A stretch of 64,000 bases of DNA, taken from positions 97,218,001 to 97,282,000 of the forward strand of contig NW_024704742.1 in NCBI RefSeq assembly GCF_018977255.1. The letters run 5' to 3'. Within the stretch, counting starts at the first letter, position 1, and every line of letters starts with the position of its first letter. Below the pieces are notes generated by a model. It ran no database searches and had not been told where the DNA came from. It worked only from the letters and a program-made list of their open reading frames with translations. The stretch comes from Callorhinchus milii. Taxonomy: Eukaryota. Shown here in pieces: positions 732 through 33,793 of this stretch. The translations under genes and the position numbers were made by a program.

Positions 732-932
732 GAGGGTGGGAGCCAACCTTTGGCTCCTGCCGCTGCAGAGATGATGTTCACTAAAGTGGGAGCGAGTGAA
801 TTGGAATGTTGGAAATGGTCTCGGGCCGGATCCGGCCCGTGGGCCGCCAGCTGGACCATGCTGGATGCAGCCCATGGACCTTTCTCAAATAGGAAATCCG
901 ACCCTCGGCAGCCAAAAGGTTGGACCACCCTG
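732..932. mobile_element. Probable hAT-type MITE
   Basis: Right end reads CAGGGTGGTCCAACCTTTTGGC on the minus strand, degenerate inverted counterpart near 732-755, internal palindrome CGGGCCGGATCCGGCCCG (822-839). Confidence 0.5.
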
Positions 933-1052
933 TCGTAGATAGTGAAAATTTATGTTATTAATTCTTTGGGAGATATTCCACTACTCAGTGTTTCTATTAT
1001 GCAAATAGAAATTCAATGTTATCTACAAAATCACCAAATATATTCCTATGTC

Positions 1053-2668: not shown

Positions 2669-2894
2669 AAGGGAATCCACACTCTCTTCCGAGAGGGATG
2701 CATCCAGCTTATCTAAGTATTAGGTGCAGTTTAGCAAGAACCGAGGCTTGATGTTTAAAATGAAGTTTAAACTGCATCCAATCAAGAGAGCTTTATGTAT
2801 TTCATTAGATACCTTGAACAATAGCACATGATCTTTCATTTCTTTTAAACTGTGCATATATGTATATTTTAACCACAAGTTAACAATATCCTCA

Positions 2895-3265
2895 TTTACC
2901 CTCACACATTCATCACATCTAGGCTTGACTACACCAACTCCCTGCTTGTTGGCCTTCCCAACTCTTCTCTTCACAAGCTGCAGATAATCCAGAACTCTGC
3001 AGCTTGTGTCCTCTCCGGAACCAGGCTCCGTGACCCCATCACCCCCACCCTCGCCCGGCTCCACTGGCTCCCCATCCCCCAGAGTTCAAAATCCTTGTCC
3101 TCACCTTCAAAGCCCTCTATGGCCTTGCTCCTTCCTACCCATGACCTGCTGAGCCCATATCAACCTATCCTCACCCTTCGCTCAGTAGGCTGTGCGTTCC
3201 ATGTCCCCTGCCCAGATCTCTCCACCATAGGCGGTCAGGACTTTAGCATTTCTGCCCACGCTGAA
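2895..3265 (+). mobile_element. L2 3' fragment, decayed
   Basis: Similar to the RLDY / LQIIQN / LHWLP region of the other L2 copies. Confidence 0.8.
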
Positions 3266-3654
3266 AACCCTCAATGTGCCACAAACAGGCGTGGATTGAT
3301 TGACAAAATTATTATTTAATTGCTTTTTTTGACTGATGTAAAAGCTTATGGGCTTGGTGAGTCAGTGAGCGTGAGTGCGTGGTGTGCATGTGTGCAAATA
3401 TGAGCTTGTGTTGGACAAGTGTGAACGCGTGGGGGATGTGTGTGTGTGTGTACGTGTGTATGTGTGTGTGAATGAGAGGTGAATCCATGTCTCGGCAAGC
3501 TGCCCACTTGACATTATCTGTATAAAAATGTGCAAGTGAGGCTAGCACATGACCCTTCCTGAAATCTTCTAGCAGGAATGACCGAGGGCTTCTAAATCTA
3601 ATTTTGTATCGTATCTCTCCGACCTGCTTACTCACACTGCTTTACTGGCTCCAC

Positions 3655-4040
3655 TTGGCTGGCTCCGGCCTCCTGTTTGTCCCCTCTGTTCCACCATTGA
3701 AACAGAGGCCATGCTTTCAGCCACTACGACCCGAAACCTTGGAACTTTCACTCTCAATCCCTCCACGTTCCCCGTGCGGCCCGCCCCACCATCGGCAGTC
3801 GGGTCTTCAGCCTTTCTGCCCACACCCTTTGAAACTCCTTTCCACATTCCCTTCGCCTCGCTCCCTCCCTTGCCTCCTTCAAGGCACATCTCAAAACCCT
3901 CCTCTTCGATCATGCCTTCTGGCACCCTTCTACCCTCCACCCTCCCCAATCCCAGCTCAGGTCCAAATCCCTGACAGTCCAATGCCTTGGAACATCCTCC
4001 CGACGTGAATGGTTATACAAATGCAATTTTGTATTGTATC
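3655..4040 (+). mobile_element. L2 3' end fragments
   Basis: L2 3' UTR and tail motif (CCTTGGAACATCCTCCCGACGTGAA...AAATGCAATTTTGT). Confidence 0.75.
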
Positions 4041-4057
4041 CTGCTTGTGTGACTTAC

Positions 4058-4115
4058 TGAACTGATAGTTCTCTGGAACAAAGTCTCCAGTTGCAACTCC
4101 ATCCTTCATGTATTT
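4058..4115 (-). CDS. VPS13A: VPS13A exon 10
   Basis: 58 nt, KYMKDGVATGDFVPENYQF, cag/gtaagt flanks. Confidence 0.9.
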
Positions 4116-7100: not shown

Positions 7101-7392
7101 ACCAATAACCATCACTAATGCAACATTAGAACAAATAAAGTAACGGCTTTGGTTGCAAACCTAGTTTAGGGAAGCACAACAATAGCGGCATGAGATCTCT
7201 TGTAAAAGAGCACAAGTTCTGGAGGGTTAGATTATGTTCCTTGTATTGCTTGGTGGTTAAACATATTCCACCTCTTGAAGGATATATACCTGCTGTAAAA
7301 GAGGGTCAAATTTAGCCTCAAAATTAAAGAATTATTCAGTGATTATTTACACCTAACAGCAAATTACATTTGGTACAAAGAAGTGAACTTAC

Positions 7393-7473
7393 CAAGGCCT
7401 CTTTTGAATTGTGTTTGGAATACATCACTGTGTTGACATTCCAGTAGGCACAGAGGCTGTCCAATCGGATAAG
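7393..7473 (-). CDS. VPS13A: VPS13A exon 9
   Basis: 81 nt, LIRLDSLCAYWNVNTVMYSKHNSKEAL, aag/gtaagt flanks. Confidence 0.92.
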
Positions 7474-7519
7474 CTTAAAAAAAGGGAGAAGATTCTTCAT
7501 TCACGTATCAAAAAATGTC

Positions 7520-7670
7520 TGCCTGGGTCAACTGGTAGCACTCTCACCACTGGGCAGAAGATTGTGGGTTCATGTCCTACAACAGGACTTGAGCTCACTG
7601 GCTGACAAATGTAGTGTTGGGAAAGCACTATGTTGTTGGAGGTGCAATCCTTTGGGTGAAACATTAAAAC
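7520..7670 (+). mobile_element. Deu-domain SINE 5' fragment
   Basis: Similar to the heads of the copies at 11407 and 48278. Confidence 0.55.
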
Positions 7671-7671
7671 A

Positions 7672-9500
7672 CATTCTCCTCACCTCCCTTGCTTCTTTTA
7701 ACAACTATTTTAAATTGGTGCCCTCGGGTTACCGACCTACCCGCCAATGGAAATAGTTTCCCCTTGTTCACCCTATCAAGCCCCTCATAATTTTGAAAAC
7801 TTCTATTAAGTCTCCTCTTAACCTTCTCTACTCCAAGGAGAATAATCCTAGCTTCTCTAGTCTCTCCTGATAACTGAAGTCCCTCATTCCTGGTACCATC
7901 CTACTGAATCTGCTTTGCACCCTCTCCAATGCCTTGATATGCTTCCTAAAGTGAGGTGCCCAAAACTGAACACAGTACTCTAGCTGAGGCCTAACCAGTG
8001 TTTTATAAAGGTTCATCATAACTTCCTGACTTTTGTATTCTATGCCTCTATTTATAAAGCCTTAATATCCCGTATGCTTTTTTAACAGCTTTATCTACCT
8101 GTCCTACCACCTTCAAAGATTTACTTACATGAACCCCCAGGTCTCTCTCTTCCTTCACCCCCTTTAAGATTGTACCATCAGTTTATATTCCTCATTCTTC
8201 CTCCCAAAATGCATCACTTTGCATTTCTCCACATTAAACTTCATCTGCCACGTGTCTGCCCATTTTACCAGTCTGTCTATGTCCTCTTGCAGTCTGCTGC
8301 TATCCTCCTCACTGTTTACTACTTTTCCTAGCTTAGCCTTATCTGCAAACTTGGAAATTGTACTCTTTATACCCAAGTCTAGGACATTTATATAGATCAA
8401 AAATAGCAGTGGTCCCAATATCGACCCCTGGGGGACACCACTGCACACTTCCCTCCAGTCAGAAAAACAACCGTTCACCACCACTCTCTGCTTTCTGTCT
8501 CCCAGCCAGTTCTGTATCCATGCTGCCACTGTCCCTTTAATACAGTGGGCTTCTATTTTGCTTACAAATCTTTTATGTGGCACTTTATCAAACGCCTTTT
8601 GAAAATCCATATAAACTACATCAACTGCACTACCTTCATCCACCCTCTCCGTTACTTTATCAAAAAGCTCAATCGGGTTTGTTAGATACGATTTGCCTTT
8701 AACAAATCCGTGTTGGCTGTCCTTAGAAAAATATGGGTTAATTAAGTGAAAATGTATTTTGTCCTGGATTACAGTCTTTGGAGGTTTCCCCACTACTGAT
8801 ATTAGACTTGACTGGCCTGTAGTTCCTGGGTTTATCCTTCTGCCCCTTTTTGTACAGGGGAGTAACATTTGCAACCCTCCAGTGTTCTGGCACCATAAAC
8901 TACATCAACTGCACTACCTTCATCCACCCTCTCCTTTACTTCATTAAAAAAACTTTATCAGGTTTATTGGACATGATTGGCCTTTAACAAATTTGTGTTG
9001 GCTGTCCTTTATTAACCCATATTTTTCTAAGTGAAAATTTATTTTGTCCCGGATTATAGTCTCTAAAAGTTTCCCCACTACTGACATTAGGCTGACTGGC
9101 CTATAGTTCCACGGTTTATTTTTCTGCCCCTTTTTGTACAGGTGAGTAACATTTACAACCCCCCAGTCATTTGGCACCACCCCAGTGTCCAAAGATTGAA
9201 AGTTGTGGCCACAGCCTCCAATATTTCCACCCTTTGTGGGATACATCCGTCTGGACCGGGTGACATATCTACCTTGAGCACCGACAATCTTTTTAGTACC
9301 TTCTCTGTTTATTCTTATCCAATTTGTATTTGTTCTGACCCCGAACTATCTCTACCTTGAAGGCTTCTTATTGCTCATTAGCTATTTTACCTGCCATTCT
9401 TTCTTTCCAGTCCACCTTAGCTAGACCCCTTTTTATCACTGAAATTAGCCCTCTTCCAGTTGAGTATCTTCACCTTTGATTGCTCCTTGTCCCTTTCCAT
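7672..9500 (-). mobile_element. CR1 LINE ORF2 remnant with an internally duplicated RT segment
   Basis: SQHGFVKGKS, VYMDFQKAFDKVPH, GVPQGS.LGP, RPQLEYCVQFWAPH. Confidence 0.93.
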
Positions 9501-9665
9501 CTTCTTTGACCATGCCTTCGGTCATCCTCTCACCTCCACCCCCCTTGACCGCCACCCCTCAGCTCCAATCCCCAGGACGAGTGTAAACCCTTGACTGTCC
9601 AGTGCTTTGGGATGTCCCCCTGAAGTGAAAGGTGCTATATAAATACCCTTTTTTGTTGTTGTTGT
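9500..9665 (+). mobile_element. L2 3' tail
   Basis: L2 3' UTR plus (TTG)n. Confidence 0.7.
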
Positions 9666-9953
9666 AGTAAATTAGTCATTCACTTCAGGCTGTTTATGGA
9701 ACATTGTTGTCCACAAATTGGCTGTAACATTCACCTCCAGATACAGTCACTGCACTTTATATAAATTTTGAGGTATGCTTTGCAACACTGACTTAACAGG
9801 CATTAGATCAATGCAATGATTTTTATATCATTACTATGTGAAAGGGTCAATTACTCCATGGCCATTTGTGGGACATGCAAATAGTCAATATCAAATGCCA
9901 GGATTATCAAGTTTCGAATTCTAATGCTACAAACTGTTACTATTACTATTTAC

Positions 9954-10007
9954 CTTATGGACAAGGTGTGAACAGTCATCAACTAGGCATGGAATCACGT
10001 CTGTTGT
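9954..10007 (-). CDS. VPS13A: VPS13A exon 8
   Basis: 54 nt, phase 0, cag/gtaaat flanks, TTDVIPCLVDDCSHLVHK; expected position between exons 7 and 9. Confidence 0.82.
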
Positions 10008-10077
10008 CTGTAAAACAATATTAAGAAATTGAGTGCAACAGTTGTTTCTAATGGTATCTGTATCCTCCTTCAATATA

Positions 10078-10490
10078 ACCTCCTACAAGTCCTGCCTCAA
10101 AACCCTCCTCTTCAACCATGCCATCGGTCACACCCCTTCCCCTCCCTCCCTTCTCCTTCGCTGGCCCCAGCTCGGGTCTGAAATGCTGTACACTGTCCAG
10201 CGCCTTGGGATGTCCTCCCGACGTGAAAGGCACTATATAAGTGTAATCTTGTTGTTGTTGTATCATCTGTCATACAGATAACCAAACATCTGAGATACTT
10301 TCACAATTGAGATCAGGATTCCATCCCACAGATCCTCCACTTCAACCATGCCTTTGGCCTCCCGCCTACCCTCCACACCTCCTGATCCCAAACCCCTGCT
10401 TGGGTCCAAATCCTTGAATGTCCAGCGACTTGGGACTTCTTCCTGATGTGAAAGGCGCTGCACAAATGTAATTTGTTGTTGTTGCTGTTG
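10078..10490 (+). mobile_element. Two L2 3' tails (about 10078-10260 and 10335-10490)
   Basis: Each ends in a GTCCAGCG..TTGGGA...GTGAAAGGC motif and (TTG)n. Confidence 0.75.
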
Positions 10491-10766
10491 TAATATTTCA
10501 GATTGGAATTTGAATCTGTGACCTACTGATTTGCTCGGTTTAGTGTCCAGTGGCAGTGCCTTTATCCATTAGGCCATTGAGGAAGTCCAGGCTAAAGTTA
10601 TTATTGTAAAATCAATGTTGATGTGGTCAGCAATGAGTCCTGCTGTCTCACCATTTATTTAGCACACAGTAACTATTTATTCAGTGAACTTATATCACAA
10701 ACGTACAACACAAAAATAAAAATGAATCATAAGGGTGCAAGGTTTAAAACTTTAAACTCATAATAC

Positions 10767-10826
10767 CTGCAGACTCAGATTCTGAAGTGACACTCCAAAC
10801 GATAGTGGACAGTTTTCATTTGTGAT
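10767..10826 (-). CDS. VPS13A: VPS13A exon 7
   Basis: 60 nt, phase 0, ITNENCPLSFGVSLQNLSLQ. Confidence 0.92.
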
Positions 10827-11406
10827 CTGTAAATAAAAAATCCAAACTACTCAAAAGCAGGTTTTTATGAACAATGAACATGATAGAAATGACATAATCT
10901 TAGTATTTACTTTTATATTGACACACATTATTCTGTTTTTTTCCCCAGAACTCCCAAACTGGAGGTAATTTTGTAAAAAAAAATCAAGAGTTAAGAAGAA
11001 AATCAATAAATGCTGGAAATATTAAAAAGGAATGAAAATCTTTTTTAAAATTGTCTCCTCAGCTATACCATATTAACATCACTTCATCATTTGTTAAAAT
11101 GAATACCCTTCTATTCCACTATTCTTTAAATATTTTCAACTTTTCAAAATGTATTTTTGTTATTTGCTCATCATCTCCAGCAAGTAGATTTTATAAACAT
11201 AAAAGCCCACATGCCCTCTGACAAATGCTGTATCATCATTCAGTTCTAATCCTCCTACAACAATCTTGCAAAATGAAACTCCAAAAACACACCGATAATT
11301 ATATCTAATCAAAGTCCAAATAATGGCAAATTTGAATCATATTGCAAAATCTGGATAACGTTTCTATTATTACAATACTGACAATTCTAAGTCATTCAAG
11401 AAGTAA

Positions 11407-11832
11407 GGTGTCAGCCTGGCTCAGTTGGTAGCATTTTTGCCTCTGAGTCAGAAGGTGTGGGTTCACATCAGTCCTCAACATCCATATAGTCTATGCTGAC
11501 ACCAATGCAATGCTGGGGGTGTGCTACATTGCCAGAAGTACTTTCCTTCGGATGAGACTTTAAACTGAGCTCTCATTTGTCTGTCCAGGTGACATTAAAG
11601 ATCCCAAGGGACTATTCAAAAAGAAAAGGGAAATTCTCCCAGCGTCCTGGTCAACAATCTCCCCAAATAAAATTGGTCATTCACTCCATGACGGTTTGTG
11701 AGATACTGTTGTACACAAATTGGTTTCAGTGTTCACCCACAAACTACATACAGTCACAGCAATTTCTATATATACACTGTGAAATGTCTTGATTATGTTA
11801 GAAACACAATTATCAAACACAAGACTTATTAT
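11407..11832 (+). mobile_element. tRNA-headed Deu-domain SINE (SacSINE1-like)
   Basis: Box A TGGCTCAGTTGG, box B-like GGGTTCAC, Deu-like core (CTTCGGATGAGACTTTAAAC), L2-like tail. Confidence 0.75.
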
Positions 11833-12696
11833 TACTCAACCTTGTGGAATATGTGTAACATTGCAAGGAAGAAAAAGGAATTAAGCTTCCCTACAGGAAT
11901 CAAATTTTGACTAAAACATTTTACTTTTGCCCTTTCAAAAAAGAAAATAAGAAAACACTAACATAAAATCTGCTCATTTATCTCGGAAGTTGCTAGCCCA
12001 TCCATTCAAATTATTGTCCCAAGAGGAAGGATTTAAATTAAGTGTGATTTTTTTAAAGCTTCAGGGTATCAAGTTACCAATTATCAAATAACTAGCACGT
12101 GGTAATCATCAAACATCGCCTAGATCATGAAAATATACTGCCTTGACGGTTTAAAGATAATGTTGCTACAATAAGGAGATAAAGGAGAAGATTTGCGAGA
12201 GCCTCACTTGAGCAGAGAGCCCAGCAGCGTGAGGAGGGAACTGAGTGAGGTGGAACAAAGTGAGAATTCTGTAAAGGAATGGGAATTCAATGCAGAGGGG
12301 AAAGAGGTGCATAATCATAAAATATATATAGTATATTAAGATAATATAAAACATGTCTGGAAATATGGCAAAGCAGCTGAGACCAGTTGCATGCACAATA
12401 TGTGCCATGTGGGAACTCCAGGATGGTTTGTGTGCCCTGGACAGACACATGTGTAGGAAGTGTAGGAAGTGCCTCCAGCCGCTTGAGCTCAGAGTTTCTG
12501 AGCTTGAGGAGAGGCTGGTGTCACAACATAGCATACGGGAGGCTGAAGAGTTCATGGACCTCTGCCAACTTCTCCTCCCTCCTCTCTTCCCTTAACTTCT
12601 CCCTCCTCATCCACTCCCCCACAGATGACAGTGGCCACCCCGTTGACCTGGTGATCACCCGAAGCCTCACCGTCTTGGACAGCACCATCGTCGATA

Positions 12697-12990
12697 AATA
12701 ATAATAAACCTTGCATTTGATATAGCGCTTTTCACGTCTTCTTGACGTCCCAAAGCGCTTCACAGAATATATAATAATAATAATCCTTGCATTTGATATT
12801 GCGCTTTTCACGTCGGGAGGACGTCCCAAAGCGCTTCACAGAACACACACTGTAAAGTGAATTGACTGTATATTTGTGGGCGAACGCGGCAGCCAATTGC
12901 GCACAGCAATGTCCCACAAACAGTCATGGATTTAAAATGACCAATTTATTATTGTTTTTTTTGGAGGGATTATTATTAGGCGTGTGGAGA
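12697..12990 (-). mobile_element. L2-tailed SINE, 5'-truncated with a doubled 3' tail, inserted within an L2 fragment
   Basis: Matches the body of the 39507-39823 SINE; two tandem tails ending in (TTA)n. Confidence 0.8.
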
Positions 12991-13344
12991 TAAAGCCATC
13001 TCGGACCACCACTTTATCTCCCTCAACACCTCAGTATCCCTTCCCCTTTCCCAACCCTCCACCATTACATACCGTTCATGGAAAAAACTTTCCTCCCTCT
13101 CCACTGCCCTGGAGTCATTTGAACTCCTACACCTCTGGCTCTTACTGATCGATCTCTCCTCCTCACTCTACTTTCTCCACAACTTCCTTTCCTCCATTCT
13201 GGACTCCCTTGCCCCCCTCACCTCCCGGACTGTCTCATACTCCCGCAAGTCCCCCGGTACACCAGTGCAAGCTGCTGAACGCGCCTGGACCAAATCCAAA
13301 CTAACGGTCCAAACTAACTGGATTAGACGGGGGAGAAATGCAGA

Positions 13345-13730
13345 ATAAACCTATAAGATCATCAAAGGGCATGATAGAGTAGATAGTGGGAGATTGTTTC
13401 CCCTGGTTGGAGAAACTAAAACCAGGGGTCACAACCTTAAAATCAGAGGCCAGCCCTTTCGCACTGAGTTGAGGAAGAACTTCTTCACTCAAAGGGTGGT
13501 TAATGTATGGAACTCACTACCCCAAAGGGCTGTTGACGCTCAGTCCTTGAACATGTTCAAGAGTAAGAGAGATAGATTTCTTATTGCAAAAGGTATTAAG
13601 GGATATGGGGATAAGGCCGGGTTAGGGTATTAGCTGGAGTTAGATTAGAAGATCAGCCATGATTGAATGGCGGGGCAGACTCGAAGGGCCGAATGGCCTA
13701 CTCCTGCTCCTACATGTTATGTTATGTTAA
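13345..13730 (+). mobile_element. CR1 3' end of a second subfamily nested in the large CR1
   Basis: TRGHNLKI..FFTQRVVNVWNSLP; (TGTTA)n tail; very similar to 25105-25480. Confidence 0.85.
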
Positions 13731-16700
13731 ACTAAGTCGATCTTGGAGTGCATGTGCGTAAACGCATGGAGTGTGACAAATAAGATTGGTGAGCTGCAGC
13801 CTCAAGTTGCCACATGGGTTTATGATGTAGGGGCAATAACAGAGACCTGGCTCACACAAGGGCAGGAATAGGAGCTGAATATTCTGGCTACAATGTATTC
13901 AGGCGAGATAGAGAATGAAAAAAATGGAGGGTTGGGGGTGGCAATATTAAAGACTTGGTTACGGCCCTGGAACAGAATCTATTTGGTTAGTGTTAAGAAG
14001 CAGAAAATGAGCTCTTACTATGTTAGGTGTATACTATAGACCACAAAATAGTGGGAAGTAGATAGACGAGCAAATCTGCAAGCAGATTTCAGAAAGATGC
14101 AAAACCAATAGAGTAGTGATAATGGAGGACTTCAATTATCCTAAACTGGCATAATAACAATGTAAAGGGAAAGGAAGGGGGAGGATTCCTAAAATGTGTA
14201 CAGGATAACTTTCTGGATCAATATGTTTCCAGCCCAATGAGGAAGGAGGCAGTGCTGGATCTTGTTCTGGGGAATGAAGTAAGTTAAGTGGAGCAGGTTT
14301 CAATAGGAGAATATCTGTCTGGACAACAGTGATCACAACATCATTAGGTTTAGAGTACTTATGGAAAGGGACAAGGTACAGTCAAAGGTGAAGATATTTA
14401 ACTGGAAGAGGGATAATTTCAGTGAGTTAAAAAGGGACCTAGCCAAGGTGGACTGAAAGAAAGATTGGCAGGTAAAACAGCTATCGAGTAAGGAGATAGT
14501 TCGGGAACAGAACAAGTGTACGGCATCCAAACCACTCTGGATGAATAAGGAAATTGGGATTAAAACAGAAAAAGGAGGCTCATGATAAGTGTCATATCCA
14601 AAATACAAAATATAATCAAATAGAATATAGAAAGTACAGAGGAGAACTGAAAAAGGAAATCAGAGGGGCAAAGAGTATGTTTGAGAAAAGATTAGCAGGT
14701 AACACAAAAGGGAACCCTAAGGTATTTTAAAGCATATAAAGAATAAAAGGTTAGCCAAAGGTAGGGCGGGTCTAATTAGGGACCAAAGAGGAAATCTTCT
14801 TGTGGAGGCAAAGGGTATGGCTGATGTACTGAATGAGTACTTTGCATCTGTCTTCACAAAAGAAGAGGGTGCAGTCAAGGCCACAGTATCAGAGGAGCGT
14901 GTAGAGAAATTGGAAAACATAAGACTAAACCGAGAGGAGGTACTAAAAAGGTTGTCGGCGCTCAAGGTAGATAGGTCACCAGTCCAAATGAGATTCATCC
15001 TAAGTTACTGAGGGAAGTAAGGGTGGAAATAATGGAGGTTCTGGCCACAATCTTTCAATCATTCTTGGATACCGGGGTGGTGCCAGAGCACTGGAGGGTT
15101 GCAAATGTTACTCCCCTGTACAAAAAGGGGCAGAAGGATAAACCCAGGAACTACAGGCCAGTCAAGCCTAATATCAGTAGTGGGGAAACCTCCAAAGACT
15201 GTAATCCAGGACAAAATACATTTTCACTTAATTAACCCATATTTTTCTAAGGACAGCCAACACGGATTTGTTAAAGGCAAATCGTATCTAACAAACCCGA
15301 TTGAGCTTTTTGATAAAGTAACGGAGAGGGTGGATGAAGGTAGTGCAGTTGATGTAGTTTATATGGATTTTCAAAAGGCGTTTGATAAAGTGCCACATAA
15401 AAGATTTGTAAGCAAAATAGAAGCCCACTGTATTAAAGGGACAGTGGCAGCATGGATACAGAACTGGCTGGGAGACAGAAAGCAGAGAGTGGTGGTGAAC
15501 GGTTGTTTTTCTGACTGGAGGGAAGTGTGCAGTGGTGTCCCCCAGGGGTCGGTATTGGGACCACTGCTATTTTTGATCTATATAAATGTCCTAGACTTGG
15601 GTATAAAGAGTACAATTTCCAAGTTTGCAGATAAGGCTAAGCTAGGAAAAGTAGTAAACAGTGAGGAGGATAGCAGCAGACTGCAAGAGGACATAGACAG
15701 ACTGGTAAAATGGGCAGACACGTGGCAGATGAAGTTTAATGTGGAGAAATGCAAAGTGATGCATTTTGGGAGGAAGAATGAGGAATATAAACTGATGGTA
15801 CAATCTTAAAGGGGGTGAAGGAAGAGAGAGACCTGGGGGTTCATGTAAGTAAATCTTTGAAGGTGGTAGGACAGGTAGATAAAGCTGTTAAAAAACATAC
15901 GGGATATTAAAGCTTTATAAATAGAGGCATAGAATACAAAAGTCAGGAAGTTATGATGAACCTTTATAAAACACTGGTTAGGCCTCAGCTAGAGTACTGT
16001 GTTCAGTTTTGGGCACCTCACTTTAGGAAGGATATCACGGCATTGGAGAGGAGATTTACTAGGATAGTACCAGGACTGAGGGACTTCAGTTATCAGGGGA
16101 GGCTAGAGAAGCTAGGATTATTCTCCTTGGAGGAGAGAAAGTTAAGTGGAGACTCAATAGAAGTATTCAAAATTAGGAGGGGATTCGATAGGGTGAACAA
16201 GGAGAAACTATTTCCACTGGTGGGTGGGTTGGTAACCCGAGGACGCTGATTTAAAATAGTTGCTAAAAGAAACAGAAGGGAGGTGAGGAGAATTTTTTTT
16301 TTTTTTTTTTTTTTTACAGAGAGTTGTTCGGATCTGAAATGCATTGTCTGAAAGGATGGAGAAAGCCGACTTGATAATAGCTTTTAAGAGAGAAGTAGAT
16401 AATTATTTGGGGAGGACAAGTTTGCTGGGCTATGGGGAGAGAGCGAGTTAGTGGGATTGATTTGGATAGCTCTTCTCAAAAAGCTGGTAGAGACACGATG
16501 GGCCGAATGGCCTCCTTCTGCGCTGTACAATTCTATGATAAGTAATTGTATTTTCTATTTCCCCATACCCTTTTAAGTATTGGAATAAAAAGTTTTATTT
16601 CTACATCAGATTCAGAGTTCTGAACAAAGTATTTTTTTAGAAATAAATTTAAAATGCAAATAAGTCAAAATTTTAGGAGCAAATCATGTGACTTTTACCA

Positions 16701-16823
16701 ACAAAGTTTCAGCAAAATATTTGCCTCAGAACATATCAAAGTGAACATTTGCAATAATGTTCAAAACACCCAAAAATATACATTTTGTTTAAACACAATC
16801 TATAAAAGAAATTAAATACTCAC

Positions 16824-16933
16824 GTTATCTTCATAACGAATATGGATGTTGGTAATTTGAACCTGCAAATTCTTAATAACCTGAGTAACCAACTTTTCAA
16901 CAAACGTGTCTTGCTTTTCTTCTTTTGGTTTCC
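16824..16933 (-). CDS. VPS13A: VPS13A exon 6
   Basis: 110 nt, [36 protein letters not shown], cag/gtgagt flanks. Confidence 0.93.
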
Positions 16934-18534
16934 CTGAAAAGGAAAGGATTTAATAATGGTAAAAATCACACTACCACATGTCATCTTGCTTCATCATGAA
17001 GCACTGCAACATGAAAAATTAAACAACCATTATCTTAAACTTGGTGGTGGTGGTGGGGGAAGGAGAGAGACCAAATGTGCATTTGCTAGCCCTTAAAAGC
17101 GACAGGGGTCCAGTTAAAGTAGCTTCCACTGCATTAGAAAAGGCTTACAGATCTGAACTTGTACTCATCAGNAAAAAAATGAGGCAAGGAATACAACACA
17201 CAAGTTATTTCAGACATAGATGATTTGGATTTGAACAAGATGACAAGTATATACCCAGAGACTTGGTGAAAATTTTGTGTGCAGAAAAGGATGTCAATTT
17301 GAAATTACGTAATGTGGGAACAGATGAATATTGGGGAATCGAGAAATAAATATGCATACTTTTCACCAAAATACAGAAAATACAATATATTATCTATTGA
17401 TGAAGGACTCAATACGAATGTGGAACTAAAGCAATATCTAGTGTCCAGAGACGACAATGGTTATTTTCTGAGTAAAAATTAAGGTTGAAAACACTAAGAA
17501 GCCTTTTTAAAAAACTGAGGGGGTAAATTTCACCCAAGTCTAGACTTACTCTAATTTTAGAGCATCTAGAATTTGGCAAATAGTTCAATTCAGTCTTAAC
17601 TTTAACATCAATTTTCTCTAGTTCTTATAAAGACTTAGAGAAAACCAAAATTAAGGATAAATTTAAGAATGCTAAAAGATTTGGTCTAGACCCAGGTGGA
17701 CAATCTCCCTGTAATATTTTGGCAAGATATCTTTGAGGGTATGAAGAATAAAATATGAGTTTAAAGTGGGAGATGATATTAAAAGTAAAGGATATGGAAG
17801 GAAATTGGAAAGGTTCAGGTGAGAAGTACACCCTGTTTGCCTGTTCAGGTAGACACTAAAGAATTTCTCCTAGTGCCAGTAACAAAAATCAGTCAGAGAA
17901 AAAAAAATTCCATTTACTTTGTGGCTGTTTGTGGAACACTACTGTGCACAAATTGGCTGCCATGTTCCCAAAATACAGTCACTACACTCTACAGAAAACT
18001 CTCAAGATGTTTTGAGATGTTCTCATGTGATACGACAGCAAATGCAAGGATTAATATTATTATAGGTTTTAAATAAATGTTTTAATATGCAAAATAAATT
18101 TATCCCTGAAATAAATTGTGGGGAAACAAAGAAACATTGCCGATCACCAAGAAAGTTACGGAAGCTTTGTATTATATTCCCGATTTACCATTAATATTCT
18201 GCTTTATAAAATATACACCATGTGCTGACATTTACAAGTGAAAGCATAAAACGGTTTTATGGTGCTGGAAGAGATATACTTCATTTCTAATGGGCTTAAT
18301 CAAAACTCCACCTTCCATATCCTCACTCCACCAAACTCTGCTTACCAATCATCCTAACTCTCACCAAGCTCTATTGGCTCTCAGTCTTCAAACATATAGA
18401 CTTCAAGGTCCTCACTCATATATAATTTCCTTCATGCCCTCTTCTCTCTGATCTGCTTTTACCTCGCACCCCCCCACCCTCCCACTCAGCTACATAAGCC
18501 TGGGGCCCTTTGTGCCAGCGTGGCCGAGCCTTCA

Positions 18535-18787
18535 GTACTTCAATTCCAGGCAGGGCGAAACCTTGAGCAAGTTTCCTTACTCCACACGCCTAATAATCAC
18601 TCCAAAACCAAAAAAAATAATAAATTGGTCATTTTCAATCTACGACTGTTTGTGGGACATTGCTGTGCGCAAATTGCTGCCGCATTCGCCCACAAAGATA
18701 CAGTCAATTTACTTTACAGTGTGTTCCGTGAAGTACTTTCCTGACGTGAAAAGCGCTATATCAAATGCAAGGATTATTATTATTATA
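18535..18787 (+). mobile_element. L2-tailed tRNA-SINE, 5'-truncated
   Basis: Same body and tail as 39507-39823. Confidence 0.8.
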
Positions 18788-18990
18788 GTAACTATGCCTC
18801 TATTCCTGCCTCTATCCTTCTTGCTTGCTCCTCTGTCTTTAAAATCCTATCTTCAAATCTACCTCTTCTGCGCCTGTAGTAACCTCACCACTTCTCCCTT
18901 GCTTGGCATCCAATCCAGTCATTGTGAAGCACTCAGATGTTTTCCTACGTGAATAGTGTTATATAAATGCAAGTTGTTTGTGTACTTTAC

Positions 18991-19092
18991 CTTTGTCAGC
19001 AACCTTTTGCTTTGCTTCTTCAATTCTCTTTAATTCCCTTTGTTTGAGTTCGTGAAGCTGCCGTCTTTCTTTCTCTGCATCATATGTTATAC
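18991..19092 (-). CDS. VPS13A: VPS13A exon 5
   Basis: 102 nt, ITYDAEKERRQLHELKQRELKRIEEAKQKVADK; ELKRIEEAKQKV matches VPS13A as recalled. Confidence 0.93.
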
Positions 19093-19369
19093 CTGGAACA
19101 TGCAATTCAAATATAGTATTATACAATTCCAATATTATTTAAGTCAATTTATCAAGCACATTTTTAAAAAAATATATATCTATTCTTTCAACTGGCTTAA
19201 TAGATGAAATTCAGAAACAAACTTCAATTAGACGAATAGTTGCTTTTCCTCGTACTTATTCATTTGGGCAAGTGATGAGTGGAAAACAAAAACAGGAGTT
19301 AACTTAGATTTCATTCAAACTTTTTCTTGGTTTGGAAATCATAGTATAGATCAATTGCCTAAGACTTAT

Positions 19370-19905
19370 TCTGGTCCCCACATTATAGAAGGGATGTGGA
19401 GGCACTGGAGAGGGTGCAAAGGAGATTCACAAGGATGATCCCAGAACTGAAGGGTTATACCTATCAGGAAAGGCTGAACATACCTGGATTCTTTTCTCTT
19501 GAAAAGAGGGTAAGGGTTGACCTGATAGAGGTCTTTGAAATGATGAAAGGTTTTGATAAGGTAGATGTAGGGAAGATGTTTCTACTTGTGGGGAGACCAA
19601 AACCAGGGGCCATCAATATAAAATAGTCACAAATAGATCAAACAGGGAAGTTAGAAGAAATTTCTTTACACAGAGTAGTGGGAATGTGGAACATACTACC
19701 ACACGGCGTTATAGATCAAATAGCATAGATGCATTTAAGAGGAAGCTAGATAGGTACATGAGGGAGAAAGGAATAGAAGGTTATGCTTGAAGACTTAGTT
19801 GAGGAAGGGCAGAGGTGGCTCACATGGAGCATAAACACCCGCATAGACCAGTTGGGCCAAATGGCCTGTTTCTGTGCTGTATATTCTAATGTATTCTAAT
19901 GTATT
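19370..19905 (+). mobile_element. CR1 3' fragment
   Basis: ALERVQRRFTRMIP..FSLEKR; tail with (TATTCTAATG) repeats. Confidence 0.85.
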
Positions 19906-20337
19906 ATTCATGCTACAAAACAACAACAAAATTATATTTATAGAGCGCCTTTCACGTCGGGAGGAGTCCCAAAGCGCTGAAAGGTGAGATTGCAAAATTC
20001 ACTGTTGACATACATTTCGGCATATTATTTGTGATCAAAAAGTCTAATCAAGATCAAATGTATACCATATTATCATATATGGTACAACTAGAGTAACCAC
20101 CATCAAAGACTAAGCAGCATCCATCGAAGCTTTCTAAGATAGGTTTCCAAGAAATTTTCTTTACACTAACCAGCTTTAAACAAGGTTTAGTTAATATATA
20201 GTATACACTTCCCATTTACAAATGCTACTTGATTTGTACTATAAACATTGCATGCATAACATTACTTCTGTAAAAGATTCACGTAGTTTTCATTATAGAT
20301 TTGATCTGAAAAATTATTGTAAAAAAGTTTTACTCAC

Positions 20338-20433
20338 TGGCACTAGGAACCACAAGCAAATAAACTCCGTCAAGTATAGCATCTACCGGTTGATTATAGA
20401 GATTATTCCATGGAATCTTCAGTTGAAGTTTGG
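20338..20433 (-). CDS. VPS13A: VPS13A exon 4
   Basis: 96 nt, cag/gtgagt flanks, KLQLKIPWNNLYNQPVDAILDGVYLLVVPSA; QPV is VPS13A-like. Confidence 0.92.
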
Positions 20434-20654
20434 CTGAAACATGCAAAAGTAGTTAAATGAAAAAGTACTAAGAGTTGAAAGATGTTATAAAATAATAATC
20501 CTTGCATTTGATATAGCGCCTGATCACGTCTTCGAGACGTCTCAAAGCGCTTCACAGAATATACTGTGAAGTGAATTGACTATATATTTGTGGGCAAAAC
20601 ATGGCAGCCAATTACGCACAGAATAGATGGGATGAAAAGAATGAGGGAGCATCC

Positions 20655-21020
20655 TAACAACAACTTGCATTTATTTAGCGCCCTTCACACAGGTAGCATC
20701 CTGGAGCGCTTCACAGTGGTGGAGTCTGACAATGAGCCAAGGGGAGTGGGTAGGTGACCATAAGCACAATCAAAAAGGAAGGTCTTTAGGCGGGATTTGA
20801 AGGTGGGGAAGGAGAAGGCAAGGCGGAGGGATCGAGGGAGAGAGTTCCAGAGTTTGAGGGCGTAGCGGCTGAAGGCACAGCCACCAATGGTGGAACGGAT
20901 GCAACGAGGGGCAATTAGGAGGCCGGAACCAGTTGAGCAGAGGCAGCAGTTGGTGGAGTGGGAGGTAAGCAGGTTGGATAGGTAGGGAGGTGCGAGGGAA
21001 TTAAGTGATTTGAAATCAAG
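20655..21020 (-). mobile_element. L2 3' fragment
   Basis: LAPPYLSNLL..AFS...LWNSLP..FKSRLKTFLF. Confidence 0.8.
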
Positions 21021-21199
21021 TGAAGTGATACATCCTTCTGCATGTAACAAACGTATTCCTCATCTGCTTTAGGCAAAGATTAATGTGGTCAAGATTAGAG
21101 GCAAAACAGTTACCATCAAAATCATTGATACATTATACAATATATTTCATATAATGTATAAATTATAATAATGTATATAATGTATTTTATATAATGTCT

Positions 21200-21490
21200 C
21201 CTTCCCCACCTTCAAATTCCCCGACCCACCCGCCCCACCACTGGCGGGAGAGCCTTCAGCCACTCCGCCCCCAACCTCTGGAATTCCATCCCCCAGTCAC
21301 TCTGTCTCGCCCCCTCCTTAGCCTCCTTCAAGTTCCGCCTCAAGACCCTCCTCTTCGACCATGCCATCGGCCACTCCCCTTCCCCTCTCACCGACCCCAG
21401 CTCGGGTCTGAAATGCTGTACTCAGTCCAGCGCCTTGGGACGTCCTCCCGATGTGAAAGACGCTTACAAATGTAATCTTGTTGGTTGTTT
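21200..21490 (+). mobile_element. L2 3' end
   Basis: L2 3' UTR and tail. Confidence 0.78.
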
Positions 21491-21646
21491 TGTATATAAT
21501 CAGTTGGTAGGAGTCTTGCCTTTAGAGTCAGAAAACTGTGGATCCAAAACCCAGATCGAGACTTTGTAGGCTCATAAATATCTATGTGTTGAAAGAGGCT
21601 CCAAAAAGTTAAATCTCATCAGTTGCAGTAGAAGCGAAACACTTAC

Positions 21647-21689
21647 CAATATGCCCAGCTTTTACTTTGAATGGTACATCCAACTCACT
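21647..21689 (-). CDS. VPS13A: VPS13A exon 3
   Basis: 43 nt, cag/gtaagt flanks, SELDVPFKVKAGHI. Confidence 0.93.
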
Positions 21690-22285
21690 CTGGAAAACAA
21701 ATAAACACAGATGTAAAATCAAACTTTAAACAATTACAACATCTCTGAAACTTATCAATCACCAACTAGACGATTTGTTTTTTTTTATATTTAGATTATT
21801 GCAGCTAGTATAATTAAATAATATTTGGCTACCAGAAGGGCTGGAAACATTATTTGTGTCTCTGCTATTCCCATTCATTCAAAGTCTCCATTTCCATGCA
21901 CTTAATTCAGGTAGTAATCTCTTGTGGAAAACATTAGGACATGCCTTCTGAAAGTTCATGCAGATGACATTGATTGATCACCTGTTTCACATCTCAGTGA
22001 CTGTGTCAAAGAACTCTATAAAATTAGTCTAGCTATCATAAAACAACATTGACTCTCCACAATCACTTTTTAATTTATCCAAATGCTTATTTTCTGTCCA
22101 TGATGATGGATGCAGGTCTGCTGTTGGCCAACTATTGAATTAATGGAGGAGTGTAGATAATGGAGTCTATCAATACTCGCCACTGAAACTTAACTTTGAG
22201 CCTTACATTTTCAATTTCAATCCAATGGTCCATATTGCACAGTATGAAATCAAACACAAAATAAACGCCAAAAAAAAACCCTTAC

Positions 22286-22329
22286 CAATGCATTTTCTTT
22301 AACTTCGAGGTTTGTGAGTACTGCATTTC
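22286..22329 (-). CDS. VPS13A: VPS13A exon 2
   Basis: 44 nt, AG/GT flanks, (G)NAVLTNLEVKENAL in frame with exon 1. Confidence 0.92.
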
Positions 22330-28599: not shown

Positions 28600-29960
28600 A
28601 CAACAGGCACGACACGAAATGACGAACTACACATAAAAAAATACACACACGAAATGAAACGTCTGGACATCTCCCGACTGAACGCCGTTGCTTCTATTTG
28701 GGTGTTTTGACGAGCAACGTAACACTATTTGGTGCAGAGCTGCGAGACCACACCAACCCCAACCCCAACCCCCACCCACTCCAAGTGTCGTCCTCGTAGT
28801 GACCCAGGTTTTCTGAGGCCAGTAGCAGACCCCACCCCACCCCTAACCCCCTCCTCCTCCTCCTCCCCTGACACGCTGCTGTCGAGCCGTGTCATTTCTC
28901 GGGTGGTCCTGGTCACTTCAGAGGTCTTTACAAACGCGGTCAACCGCACTCTGCAGTACCGCGCAGGATCCCGAGGGGCGGGTCCCTCACTCCCCCCACC
29001 ACCCCCGGGGAGGGGGAGAAGGGAAGGGGTGGGCCATTTTCTCAACTGTCAAAAACACCAGGAAACGGCCGGGAAATTAAATACACGAACAGCCCGCAAA
29101 CATAACATCATCTGTTAACTTATTTTTTTTTCTCTCTCTCTCTCTCTCTCACTCACTCCTTTTTACCTCCCCATATTCCTATTGTCAGCTGCGAGCTGTC
29201 CAGGTTCACCACGTAATCGCCCAGGAAGCGGTTCAGCACGTCGATCACGATGGACTCGAACACCATCCTGCCGTCAGCAGCATCCTCGGGGTCCCCTGGA
29301 CCCCCACACCCCGCCCGCCCGCCCGCCCGCCGCTGTCCACCCGCTCCCCGCCGCCGCCGCCGCCGCCCTAAACCGCACAGAGGAGGACCCGCCTGTGTCT
29401 GAGCAGCGAGAGCACGAGACTCACTCACTCACTCATGCGCACACGGGGGGGGGGGGGGGGACCGAGCGCGAGCGTCAGGTGCCGTTTTTTTTAAAAACGC
29501 ACACCAACCGACCCCCCCGACGCCACAGCGACCGGAAATGCCGCCCACGCGCGCGCGCCCACCCGCCCGCCCGCGCGCGTGCGTCACCTTACCTTCACCA
29601 GCAAAGGCAACCCGCGCTCCAAAGTTGACAGCTTGGGGCGGGTTCGCACCCAGTTGGGCTATTTTCGCGGGAGGTTGTTGCTGCTGCTGCTGCTGGCGTT
29701 ACGTCGGCTTTTTTTTAAAAAAAGGCTTTGGGCGGACGCCTAATTTTGACTTTAAACTTACAAAACGTCTTTTGCGTTTTAAGACGTTTTACTGCGTCGT
29801 TTGAAAAAAAAAACACTAAAACCCGAATCGGTCAGTCTCTGCGGCGCATAGGAGGCGACACGTTACCATCGGGCTACTTTTGGGCTAGTGCTTGGTGGAT
29901 TTTGGACTCCGAGCCTATTTTAATTCCTGGCAAGTTCCTGGTCGCGGGTGGCGATGGAGA
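28600..29960. promoter_or_regulatory. CpG island / VPS13A promoter and 5' UTR
   Basis: Strong local CpG/GC enrichment against a CpG-poor background; GC boxes, CCGGAAAT (ETS-like) near 29532, GCGCGCGC (NRF1-like) runs, short (CCG)n near 29348-29367, G run near 29445-29460. Confidence 0.85.
29167..29266 (-). CDS. VPS13A: VPS13A (chorein) coding exon 1
   Basis: [33 protein letters not shown], the chorein N-terminus; 100 nt; GT donor at 29166-29165. Confidence 0.93.
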
Positions 29961-31025: not shown

Positions 31026-31050
31026 TTTATTATTATTATTGTTATTTATT
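31026..31050 (-). terminator. Candidate polyadenylation signals for the C2CD4-family gene
   Basis: Two AATAAA on the minus strand (31045-31050, 31026-31031) about 600 nt after the stop codon. Confidence 0.4.
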
Positions 31051-31649
31051 TTGCATCACCTCCAAATCATAAAACTTGTGAATGATTCATGGTCGAACAT
31101 AAAATTGTTATAATGTACATTTGTAATACTTTGAGCTCCAAAGAGAATGGGATTATTTACATATTTTGTTACTTTCATTTTTTAACATTTTGATACATTT
31201 GCAAAAGAAATGCAACAAAGCAACATAACCAAGATGTGTACATTTCATGAATAATCAATCTAACGTATATTGATAAAGATATACACACAAAAAAGTTACA
31301 CAGGCTACCAATTAGACAAAGTGGAAGTAAAGTTCCCAGTTTACTTGCTTACAGGTTGGTATTGTTTTCTAAATGATATATGTTGTTTCCAATGCCTTTA
31401 CTTTTCTGTGTTCAGAACTAATTAACTCAATGATGAATTTAAGAAAACGTAAGTAGTAAAGTAGTCCTACTTGTCAAGATTTCTAGATATACTGAAGCAC
31501 ACTTTTGTTGAATTTGTCTATAAATCTCTGAATTTCATTAGCAAACTACTGTACTGATAGCAACTGTGTTACGATTAACAATGGCGTACTTTTATGTGAA
31601 ACTTGGATATAGTATAGCAACTCCAATAATGGGGGGCTTTCTGAGTGTA

Positions 31650-32987
31650 TTAGAGATGGTTTGGCAGAAGGGATGAGAGAGGAAGCTCTTTTTCGCCAAG
31701 CTGGGTATTACGTTTCAGGTTAACTCCCTTGTTAATAACCTTTATTTTGAAGTACATGTTCTTGTAATTTTCCTCCGTTATCCCATCAAAGAAGAAGTCT
31801 TCATTGAAAATTGGATTACTACTGTTCTTTATTATGGTGCTGCATTGTTTTTGAAATTTACCTGGCATCAGGTATAAAAGCACATAGCAGTTGACATTCT
31901 TTATCTCAAAGTCTTTATCATACAGTTCCTCCACTGCAATGACACGCACCCGAAAGGTGACTCTGCTGAAGTCGAATTCTGTGGAGAGCCTGACTGTGCC
32001 TCTTTTATTAAGTAGGATTGTGTGCTCGTTAAACAATCTTTCACGACACTGGAGTAGATCAAGGGGAAAGATTGCTGAATGTGCAAAAGGGCATCCATGC
32101 AGAGATGTTTGACAGCTGTAAACAGACTTTCTGGAAATACTGGGGCTCGTATCTGTAGAGCTACATTCATCGGTTGAAAATGAGCTGTTCCTTCCTAAGG
32201 TCTGTTTGGATTTAGAGTGCAGAACCTGAGTGGAACTCTCATTGCTGAATAATTTCAAGAGGGAAGACCCGGACACGGACCGATGCAGGGATGGAGAGTT
32301 AAAGGGAGATGACTCTGATGAAGATTGAGTATCACTGTCAAACGTGCCTTGACTGGAGAACATTCTGGATGACTTAGATAAAGGTAATGTCAGTTCAGGA
32401 AGGCTTAGATGCTTTATCTGCAGAAAAGTGTTTGTAGTTGACTGTCTCTGATCATCATCTGTTATGTATTCTTTCTGCTGTAAGGTTTGCTGTATAGAAC
32501 TAGTGACTGGATCGACATGGAATAATGATTCCTTTCGTCTGGTATGAGGATTCTCCAATAAAGGTGAAAATCCATAGCAAGGCATCAGCGATTTATAATC
32601 TCTAATCCTATCTTTGTCACTGCTCTGGTTGTTGTCACTGCTCAGATCTTCAGCACTTTCAACCTGTATTATATGACAATTTGCTAGATGTGCAAAGTTC
32701 TTATTACTATCACATTTTCTGGAAAAAGAAGGAATATCGTTGCATGAAGCAGATAGTTTCAATTTGCATTTATTGAACTGGTTGCAAGAACCTCGTGAGC
32801 TATTCCGCTGGGCTACTGGAAGCTTGGGTGGAATAAAGAAATCTGGTATTTTGTCTGGTGTCAGTACATTGCTGTATAGTCTGGAGATCTTTACCCTGGG
32901 TACACTTCCATCATATGATGCAAACATTTTGCTGTCAGAAGAAATGCTGTTTTCACCTGATGCACGGACTTTATCAAACAGCCACAT
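31650..32987 (-). CDS. C2CD4: C2 calcium-dependent domain-containing protein 4 family member, intronless CDS, 445 aa; paralogue identity uncertain
   Basis: First ATG gives MWLFDKVRAS; family motifs SNVLTPDKIPDFFIPPKL, HIIQVES, YGF..L.E.PHTRRKESLFH, Ser-rich linker, C-terminal C2 domain (PGKFQKQCSTIIKNSSNPIFNEDFFFDG). Confidence 0.93.
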   Translation of the reverse strand: MWLFDKVRASGENSISSDSKMFASYDGSVPRVKISRLYSNVLTPDKIPDFFIPPKLPVAQRNSSRGSCNQFNKCKLKLSASCNDIPSFSRKCDSNKNFAHLANCHIIQVESAEDLSSDNNQSSDKDRIRDYKSLMPCYGFSPLLENPHTRRKESLFHVDPVTSSIQQTLQQKEYITDDDQRQSTTNTFLQIKHLSLPELTLPLSKSSRMFSSQGTFDSDTQSSSESSPFNSPSLHRSVSGSSLLKLFSNESSTQVLHSKSKQTLGRNSSFSTDECSSTDTSPSISRKSVYSCQTSLHGCPFAHSAIFPLDLLQCRERLFNEHTILLNKRGTVRLSTEFDFSRVTFRVRVIAVEELYDKDFEIKNVNCYVLLYLMPGKFQKQCSTIIKNSSNPIFNEDFFFDGITEENYKNMYFKIKVINKGVNLKRNTQLGEKELPLSSLLPNHL

Positions 32988-33652
32988 GAATGCTGAATAT
33001 TCTGAACTCAATACAATTTAATGTCAATTGCATGCACTCTGAAAGAAAGATACCACAGAATTACATGTAAAAATCTGAAATATTTATTTATTGCAAATCT
33101 ATTTCAAAATCTATATATCTAGAAAATACAATTGAATAGATTTATTGGCGATTAGTTAGAGTCCTAAGTTTTAATGAACACTTCATTTTGAATAAAATGA
33201 TGCTATAACTTATGCTTACCCAGTTAGAAACTAAATAAATGCTATTCATGAGCTAGGCATAGCTAGTTTTAATATTCTTTTTGATGTTCTCAATAAGTTT
33301 CCACTCGTATTTTGCACAATATTCTTGTATTATACCAGCAACACTAGCTTTTTTTGCACAAACTGCAGTGGTCCAAATTGTGACTAATCAATAAACATTC
33401 TCATATTTGTAAATAAAAACCTGGAAAAGTATCTTCATCCAGCCCAATGTCATGTATTTACATCTTATTTTAAATATACATAGTAAATAATAAACAAGTT
33501 GGAAAAACAGTGGGAAATGTTTATGGTATATATGTAGCTGTAAAATATACATATTTTAAATAATTGATAAAAAATTTGGATTACAGTTTGTGTTCTTCAT
33601 GAGCATTATATTAACTGAAAAAGCATCCAAAGAAAACTGCTTATTCACTTAC

Positions 33653-33742
33653 AGTTTTGAAGGAGATATCTTGCAGGTCGCTCAAAGGATTGCTTGATGA
33701 AAAACGTCGATGTCCTCACTGAAGTGCTCACGAACCACATTA
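33653..33742 (-). other. Probable non-coding exon 1 of the C2CD4-family gene
   Basis: GTAAGT donor starting at 33652; acceptor tctttctttcag ending at 33039, just upstream of the ATG; TATA box about 25-30 nt upstream; TSS position estimated. Confidence 0.6.
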
Positions 33743-33763
33743 AAGAACAGTTGCAATGAAGTG

Positions 33764-33793
33764 TTTTATATATAATGAAATGACTGAACGTCA
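33764..33793 (-). promoter_or_regulatory. TATA box plus CRE half-site of the C2CD4-family gene
   Basis: TATATATAAAA on the minus strand at 33764-33774; TGACG at 33789-33793. Confidence 0.55.

Follow-up and report, generated by a model that had tools for sequence, protein, structure and literature searches.

VPS13A is the chorea-acanthocytosis gene and VPS13C is a Parkinson and diabetes gene. At the human VPS13C locus, C2CD4A and C2CD4B presumably stand in the same geometry as the pair of genes described below, and C2CD4C is taken here to be the gene also called KIAA1957 or NLF3. The split between VPS13A and VPS13C came last of all in the VPS13 family according to the available text of PMC12463328. 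The available text of PMC5129588 describes C2CD4C as cytoplasmic and dispensable for pancreas development, and that of PMC7829492 reports that C2CD4A and C2CD4B both bind PTPRN2, that C2CD4A undergoes a small Ca2+-dependent recruitment to membranes and C2CD4B none, and that C2cd4a-null fish are normal.

In the available part of the supplement of Lamb and Hunt (2018), Table S1 lists a quartet of C2CD4CL, C2CD4A, C2CD4C and C2CD4D, with C2CD4CL placed at 34.8 Mb on gar LG2 and absent from human and chicken (PMC6170504). Supplementary Table S1 of Lamb (2021), in the part available, assigns the quads of paralogon 7 as A = [C2CD4CL], B = C2CD4C, C = C2CD4D and D = C2CD4A, with the pattern ((A,B),(C,D)); C2CD4CL is entered for gar (ENSLOCG00000017540, LG2 34.79 Mb) and reedfish (ENSECRG00000002009, chr5 190.41 Mb) and left blank for Xenopus, zebra finch, chicken, opossum and human (PMC8040251). 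Because the gar gene lies between PRUNE2 (34.68 Mb) and TLE4 (35.21 Mb) and near RORB (34.27 Mb), all placed on LG2 in the same table, it falls within the interval studied here. VPS13 is not mentioned in the supplement text examined of either paper.

The window analysed here is a stretch of 64,000 nucleotides from the chimaera Callorhinchus milii, the elephant shark (G000:C1:97,218,001-97,282,000). It contains a C2CD4 reading frame of 445 amino acids, intact and without internal stop, upstream of a VPS13 gene on the same strand, as reported in a preliminary description made from the sequence; the ORF ends 2383 nt before the VPS13 start codon. The elements of the C2CD4 gene, in window positions, are as follows.

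31650..32987, minus strand: main coding exon of C2CD4CL, 445 amino acids plus stop, from the ORF and the trees
31662..31958, minus strand: C2 domain, residues 344-442, from Pfam, AlphaFold, alignment with synaptotagmin-7 C2A and Foldseek
33585..33600, minus strand: end of a predicted upstream coding mini-exon, from an ATG to a GT donor at 33584, with an AG acceptor at 32994-32993
33653..33774, minus strand: candidate promoter or non-coding first exon, with a TATA-like element at 33774-33764 and a GTAAGT donor at 33652, proposed from sequence only
31026..31649, minus strand: probable 3′ UTR of C2CD4CL, with two AATAAA signals at 31050 and 31031

The ORF, TATA-like element, donors and two AATAAA signals together make a plausible whole gene. 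The span of 31650..33793 first given for it begins correctly at the edge of the ORF, and its end at 33793 takes in the TATA-like element and the candidate 5′ exons with no coding sequence of the main ORF. If the predicted mini-exon is joined to the acceptor at about 32993, it would supply the seven-residue N-terminal extension of a 452-amino-acid database model (P0287). The 90% cluster of the C2CD4CL protein has one other member, this 452-residue UniRef entry from Callorhinchus milii, which is identical to the ORF product except for the seven additional N-terminal residues and is named C2CD4C-like, the automatic label that had been anticipated. A homologue search with the 445-residue protein retrieved 1009 proteins at E<=0.001; among the 120 listed, nearly all are named C2CD4C or C2CD4C-like, and the best identity is 46-48% over the full length. 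Matches in the ESM Atlas carry family-level names only.

A count of C2CD4 loci, proposed as a check in the preliminary description, gives three full loci in the chimaera genome: C1 (the window), C21 (C2CD4C, P0023) and C26 (C2CD4A, P0141), the N-termini of the latter two matching the proteins that carry the names C2CD4C and C2CD4A in this species. C2CD4CL is 49% identical to the C2CD4C of its own genome, its closest named paralogue. No fourth C2CD4 locus was found in the assembly with a shark C2CD4D query, which may reflect either a loss or an assembly gap.

For phylogeny, sequences were drawn from 120 named homologues, 150 further representatives and the best 120 of 1113 matches to a clade profile; 302 proteins were fetched, of which 224 passed a filter on C2 signature and length and 78 were dropped. 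A FastTree of 120 chosen rows contains four vertebrate C2CD4 clades, to which names were assigned via cluster look-ups. A second tree was computed with IQ-TREE (LG+C20+F+G4) over 400 columns from 45 rows picked for taxon spread from the 302 proteins, rooted with amphioxus and three distant sequences and containing no cyclostome sequence. It supports a clade uniting the window protein with CL proteins (100/98) and clades of C2CD4C (100/98), C2CD4D (99/96) and C2CD4A/B (93/93), and it pairs CL with C2CD4C (97/97) and A/B with D (96/84). The quartet topology ((CL,C),(D,A)) is the same as that in the available supplement of Lamb 2021 (PMC8040251). In the CL clade, which comprises coelacanth, caecilian, salamander, bichir, sturgeon, gar, bowfin and teleost proteins besides that of the chimaera, the chimaera protein is sister to all 13 bony-vertebrate rows, and these split into lobe-finned and ray-finned branches as the species do. 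AU tests reject placement of the chimaera protein inside C2CD4C (p=0.0014) and inside C2CD4A/B (p=3.6e-5), and the tree places it outside C2CD4D, which lies on the other 1R side; the earlier claim that it belongs to none of the three named clades is thereby borne out. The features of the C2CD4 family are present in the chimaera protein, namely a single C-terminal C2 domain after a long N-terminus of low structure and, in the alignments, the motifs NVLTP..IP.F.IPP and P(H/N)TRRKESLF. Very probably, C2CD4CL, the fourth 2R ohnologue, has its chimaera orthologue in the ORF of the window, which occupies its ancestral place beside VPS13A.

A lineage-specific duplicate or retrocopy of C2CD4C that came to lie beside VPS13A by chance would agree with the C2CD4C-like database label, with C2CD4C as the nearest named paralogue (49% in its own genome) and with the essentially single-exon coding sequence. 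The C21 and C26 paralogues, however, are likewise single long ORFs, branching within the clade follows that of the species, chimaera through teleosts and amphibians, and an identical C2CD4-VPS13 geometry exists on the paralogous C26 segment. With nesting in C2CD4C rejected by the AU test, an origin by duplication or retroposition stands refuted unless the alignment is badly biased, and hardly any credence is given to it.

The gar protein of the fourth clade (P0018) is UniProt W5NLY6 and gar C2CD4C is W5NM84, an accession offset of 98 that is found also between the two Ensembl gene numbers in the available tables of Lamb (PMC8040251). The identification of P0018 with ENSLOCG00000017540 is indirect but exact. 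Given this link and the [C2CD4CL] entries in the available tables of PMC6170504 and PMC8040251, the fourth clade is already named; the preliminary description, which had allowed for a clade already named and described, was mistaken in presenting it as unrecognised. The tabulated gene and that of the chimaera are alike as fourth members of the quartet, paired with C2CD4C, on the RORB-PRUNE2-TLE4 segment and missing in human and chicken. The tables as available differ in covering bony vertebrates only, by name and position, without VPS13, cartilaginous-fish or amphibian members, or sequence features. The name C2CD4CL was not found in the searchable main texts of the literature, and no C2CD4 gene beside VPS13A was found described in titles and the starts of abstracts, in a search that covered few subscription papers. 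Within that literature, no cartilaginous-fish CL member, no C2CD4-VPS13 pair on both 1R halves, no absence of CL from sharks and rays, lungfish, frogs and amniotes, and no loss of a motif from CL was found in print. The news is modest, consisting of a wider spread, the place beside VPS13A and a lost motif, as the gene itself was already tabulated for two bony fishes; the cartilaginous-fish member completes and dates the C2CD4 quartet. NCBI names the gar and several teleost CL proteins plainly C2CD4C, an annotation trap through which fish studies of "C2CD4C" may concern the wrong paralogue.

The neighbouring VPS13 gene, also on the minus strand, has twelve exons in the window, from an ATG at 29266 down to 323.

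29167..29266, minus strand: coding part of exon 1, with the ATG at 29266 and a GC- and CpG-rich promoter region before it
323..22329, minus strand: exons 2-12, from splice-site and PDB chain comparisons
22329-22286, 21689-21647, 20433-20338, 19092-18991 and 16933-16824, minus strand: exons 2-6
10826-10767, 10007-9954, 7473-7393, 4115-4058, 665-538 and 429-323, minus strand: exons 7-12

All internal exon boundaries have AG/GT, the exons splice into 327 codons without a stop, and the gene runs past the left end of the window to about C1:97.126 Mb. The VPS13 motifs first noticed in it are all present. The seven exons of sufficient length were scored against the PDB chains of human VPS13A (9yg4) and VPS13C (9yqp). 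Five of the seven score higher against VPS13A than against VPS13C, in bits: exon 1 (46.2 vs 36.4), exon 4 (32.3 vs 27.4), exon 5 (27.0 vs 20.3), exon 11 (41.2 vs 25.1) and exon 12 (40.4 vs 29.1); exons 6 (43.6 vs 44.2) and 9 (13.1 vs 14.7) marginally favour VPS13C. The summed best-domain scores are 243.8 vs 197.2 bits, of which the shorter VPS13A chain contributes an advantage of about 2 bits per exon, and identical residues number 156 vs 147. A homologue search with exon 11, among proteins of at most 2000 aa, retrieved no match. A stronger ground is exclusion, as the genome has two VPS13A/C loci and the one on C26 is of C type: exon 6 matches just C1 (the window) and C26, and exon 12 of the C26 gene prefers VPS13C (43.0 vs 35.7 bits) while for its exon 11 the two chains are level (26.3 vs 25.1). 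Relative to VPS13A, human VPS13C carries an additional 43 residues at the site of exons 5 and 6, after residue 128 in the PDB chain numbering. A Lys-rich exon is absent, as first stated, from the intron of 2057 nt that separates exons 5 and 6 of the window gene, an intron that includes the single N of the window (17172), and the same scan finds a 63-nt Lys-rich exon in the matching intron of the C26 gene. On the exon scores, the lack of a VPS13C-type insert and the C type of the other locus, the neighbour is assigned as VPS13A, in agreement with the preliminary description. Exon 8 (9954-10007) is 54 nt long, and from there the spliced protein is two residues shorter than human VPS13A.

The following genes flank the pair on C1.

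C1 96.94-97.00 Mb and 97.07-97.12 Mb, plus strand: two Gq-family genes
C1 97.31 Mb, minus strand: FoxB gene, 28 kb past the right end of the window
C1 97.48-97.50 Mb, plus strand: BNIP2-family gene
C1 98.15 Mb, minus strand: ROR gene

The order on C1 is Gq-family, Gq-family, VPS13(-), C2CD4(-), FoxB, BNIP2-family and ROR. From sequence features we take the flanking genes to be GNAQ, GNA14, FOXB2, PRUNE2 and RORB; with these labels within families, the RORB-PRUNE2-FOXB2-VPS13A-GNA14-GNAQ block that had been expected on this scaffold was found. With the same labels, the C1 order equals the human 9q21 order, in which PRUNE2 and RORB have the positions given in the available supplement of Lamb 2021 (PMC8040251). 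C2CD4CL thus lies in the RORB-PRUNE2-TLE4 segment (quad A of paralogon 7), TLE4 not being among the genes located. C26 carries, in this order, BNIP2-family, FoxB, ROR and VPS13 genes and C2CD4A; the last two share a strand, and 4076 nt separate the end of C2CD4A from the ATG of VPS13, in the same geometry as on C1 (2383 nt). On C21 (9,494,106-9,548,501), two Gq-family genes, presumably GNA15 and GNA11, follow C2CD4C within 21 kb and have the relative orientation seen on C1, and no VPS13 relic was found in 40 kb around C2CD4C. The arrangement on C21 mirrors C2CD4CL-VPS13A-GNA14-GNAQ minus VPS13. A gene for a ROR-type nuclear receptor is present at G000:C21:10,302,131-10,303,202, matching the mammal-lost RORBL row in the available table of Lamb 2021 (PMC8040251).

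If the neighbour were VPS13C and the ORF a divergent C2CD4A/B gene, the geometry would be that of human VPS13C and C2CD4A/B, and the marginal preference of exons 6 and 9 for VPS13C would fit. A true C2CD4A and a VPS13C-type gene are, however, both present on C26 with FoxB, ROR and BNIP2-family neighbours, which refutes this assignment; the AU test rejects the ORF within A/B, and the Gq-family pair lies downstream on C1. The probability left to a VPS13C locus is negligible.

The simplest history would be a pair of C2CD4 and VPS13 genes older than 1R, with VPS13A and VPS13C each surviving on one 1R half. At the outset, one C2CD4 gene would have stood directly upstream of a VPS13A/C gene and shared its strand; from 1R would have come a VPS13A side and a VPS13C side, each with a C2CD4 neighbour; after 2R, the VPS13 copy beside C2CD4C would have been lost, and presumably that beside C2CD4D likewise. 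C2CD4CL would be the 2R sister of C2CD4C and the 1R cousin of C2CD4A/B and D, lost later in several lineages, the mammalian line included. The fourth clade (100/98) and the same geometry on C26 agree with the original proposal of a remaining 2R copy of a C2CD4-VPS13 pair. C2CD4A/B, beside VPS13C at the type 2 diabetes locus, share the layout of a C2CD4 gene upstream of VPS13 (both on one strand of C26, with a gap of 4.1 kb) and differ in lying on the other 1R half, forming a separate clade and being kept in mammals. The micro-synteny is direct evidence for VPS13A and VPS13C having parted at the first genome doubling along with a C2CD4 neighbour.

The pairing of C2CD4 and VPS13 might also be more than a relic left passively by slow rearrangement, namely a functional unit with shared enhancers or promoter-proximal coupling, under selection since before 1R. 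The gaps of only 2.4 kb and 4.1 kb and the same orientation on both 1R halves are compatible with such a unit, as is the association of human risk variants with lower VPS13C and C2CD4A in female islets, given in the available text of PMC5005967. Against it, the pair has been broken repeatedly and C2CD4C has no VPS13 beside it; CL was not found in sharks and rays, lungfish, frogs or amniotes, yet VPS13A persists in mammals; and with collinearity across the whole block, no particular cause is required for the genes to lie close together. Selection on the pair is considered unlikely. The fuller scenario, offered with similar reserve, is that C2CD4 and VPS13 have been co-regulated since before 1R, with a VPS13A twin in chimaeras, many bony fishes, caecilians and salamanders, and with a functionally distinct C2CD4CL that lost a bilaterian binding motif and was dropped independently in sharks and rays, lungfish, frogs and amniotes. 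It is given low weight on account of the repeated breaking of the pair. If it were true, the human diabetes locus of VPS13C and C2CD4A/B would have an unstudied twin at VPS13A.

The CL clade accounts for 41 of the 224 filtered proteins, with named members from the chimaera, coelacanth, two caecilians, two salamanders, bichirs, sturgeons, gars, bowfin and teleosts. The gene was indeed kept in the chimaera, as first claimed, and it was also kept in many bony fishes, caecilians and salamanders. Among the best 120 of 1113 profile matches, a listing from which fast-evolving members could be hidden, sharks and rays, lungfish, frogs and amniotes contribute no CL member, and all 11 elasmobranch matches among those listed group as C2CD4C in the FastTree. 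No amniote, and so no mammal as had been stated, is among the named CL-clade proteins in these protein listings; the corresponding cells, including those of human and opossum, are blank in the available Lamb tables (PMC6170504, PMC8040251). The absences, if real, imply several independent losses. The chimaera keeps CL and apparently lacks D; sharks keep D (P0142, P0153) and apparently lack CL.

Just before the RRKES site, a DP-Q-A-SLP motif is present in 122 of 127 C2CD4C, 13 of 14 A/B and 7 of 17 D proteins and in none of 38 CL proteins (near-duplicates included in all counts). The motif is visible in amphioxus and other distant homologues, and the alignments suggest that the CL clade has lost it from an ancestral state; a motif lost only in this clade would offer a natural variant for finding the binding partners of the poorly understood C2CD4 proteins. 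Root-to-tip paths from the clade ancestor are longer for CL than for C in seven of eight matched taxa, the exception being the chimaera. C2CD4C thus resembles C2CD4CL as its 2R sister (49% identity) in length class, N-terminal motifs and single C-terminal C2 domain, and differs in keeping DP-Q-A-SLP (122/127), in evolving more slowly, in the loss of its VPS13 neighbour and in being retained in all groups sampled. The amphioxus homologue (P0189) extends about 160 residues beyond the vertebrate C-terminus with what in the alignment resembles a second C2 domain, which suggests that vertebrate C2CD4 proteins may have been truncated from a tandem-C2 ancestor.

The chimaera gene could be intact but silent or decaying, given the loss of the ancestral motif and the lack of any spliced transcript among just four short contigs over the locus, at depth 2-3.5, from two sequencing runs presumed to be RNA. 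Three of these contigs fall within the ORF or at its edge, and the fourth stops at 33654, one base from the predicted donor, a weak hint for the first-exon donor. No exon joint at C2CD4CL was seen in four sequencing runs, none of them recorded as RNA, a result that says nothing against expression. Silence is nevertheless improbable in view of the full-length open frame, the presence of all clade-invariant CL residues, a branch (0.42) no longer than that of the chimaera's own C2CD4C (0.52), and the TATA-like element, splice sites and polyadenylation signals.

AlphaFold folds only residues 308-440 or so of C2CD4CL (mean pLDDT 51), and Pfam matches a C2 domain at residues 344-442 of 445 (E 8.7e-12). 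The best sequence and fold matches of the domain, by alignment and Foldseek, are synaptotagmin C2A domains (for example synaptotagmin-7, PDB 6ANK/6ANJ). Ca2+-sensing C2 domains have five aspartates in loops 1 and 3; relative to synaptotagmin-7 C2A, C2CD4CL keeps one of five (D359), the others being N366, N419, G421 and T428. Further differences from synaptotagmin are the single C2 domain and the lack of a transmembrane anchor. C2CD4C rows also have non-aspartate residues at the same columns, which, judged from the alignment, sits badly with the Ca2+-binding motif stated for C2CD4C in the available text of PMC5129588. The N-terminal two thirds of C2CD4CL would act through short conserved motifs, NVLTP..IP.F.IPP and the basic RRKES site, and the C2A-like domain would attach to membranes or partners while binding Ca2+ directly to a small extent or not at all. 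Partial redundancy with paralogues, faster evolution and the missing ancestral motif would make the protein dispensable. From the fold confined to the C2 part, the one aspartate of five and the paralogue data in the available texts of PMC5129588 and PMC7829492, we infer with about even confidence that C2CD4CL may be a mostly disordered cytoplasmic adaptor, driven by motifs, with a largely Ca2+-independent C2 dock, redundant enough for frequent loss.

No further genes were found in the window by a Pfam scan of 157 stop-to-stop frames of at least 55 aa in 33,000-64,000, which returned just one piece of LINE reverse transcriptase and two sub-threshold matches. The region 33,900-64,000 is AT-rich, with LINE pieces and no protein-coding match, and may be home to FoxB enhancers. 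A partial tRNA match at 39756-39818 on the minus strand (Rfam RF00005, 37 bits) is probably the head of a tRNA-derived SINE. A perfect 818-nt inverted repeat occupies window positions 8078-8895 and 15078-15895, 6182 nt apart in VPS13A introns 8 and 6, with exons 7 and 8 between its arms. Each arm carries the same 234-aa CR1-like reverse-transcriptase frame, and the repeat is either the scar of a recent duplication and inversion or an assembly artefact.
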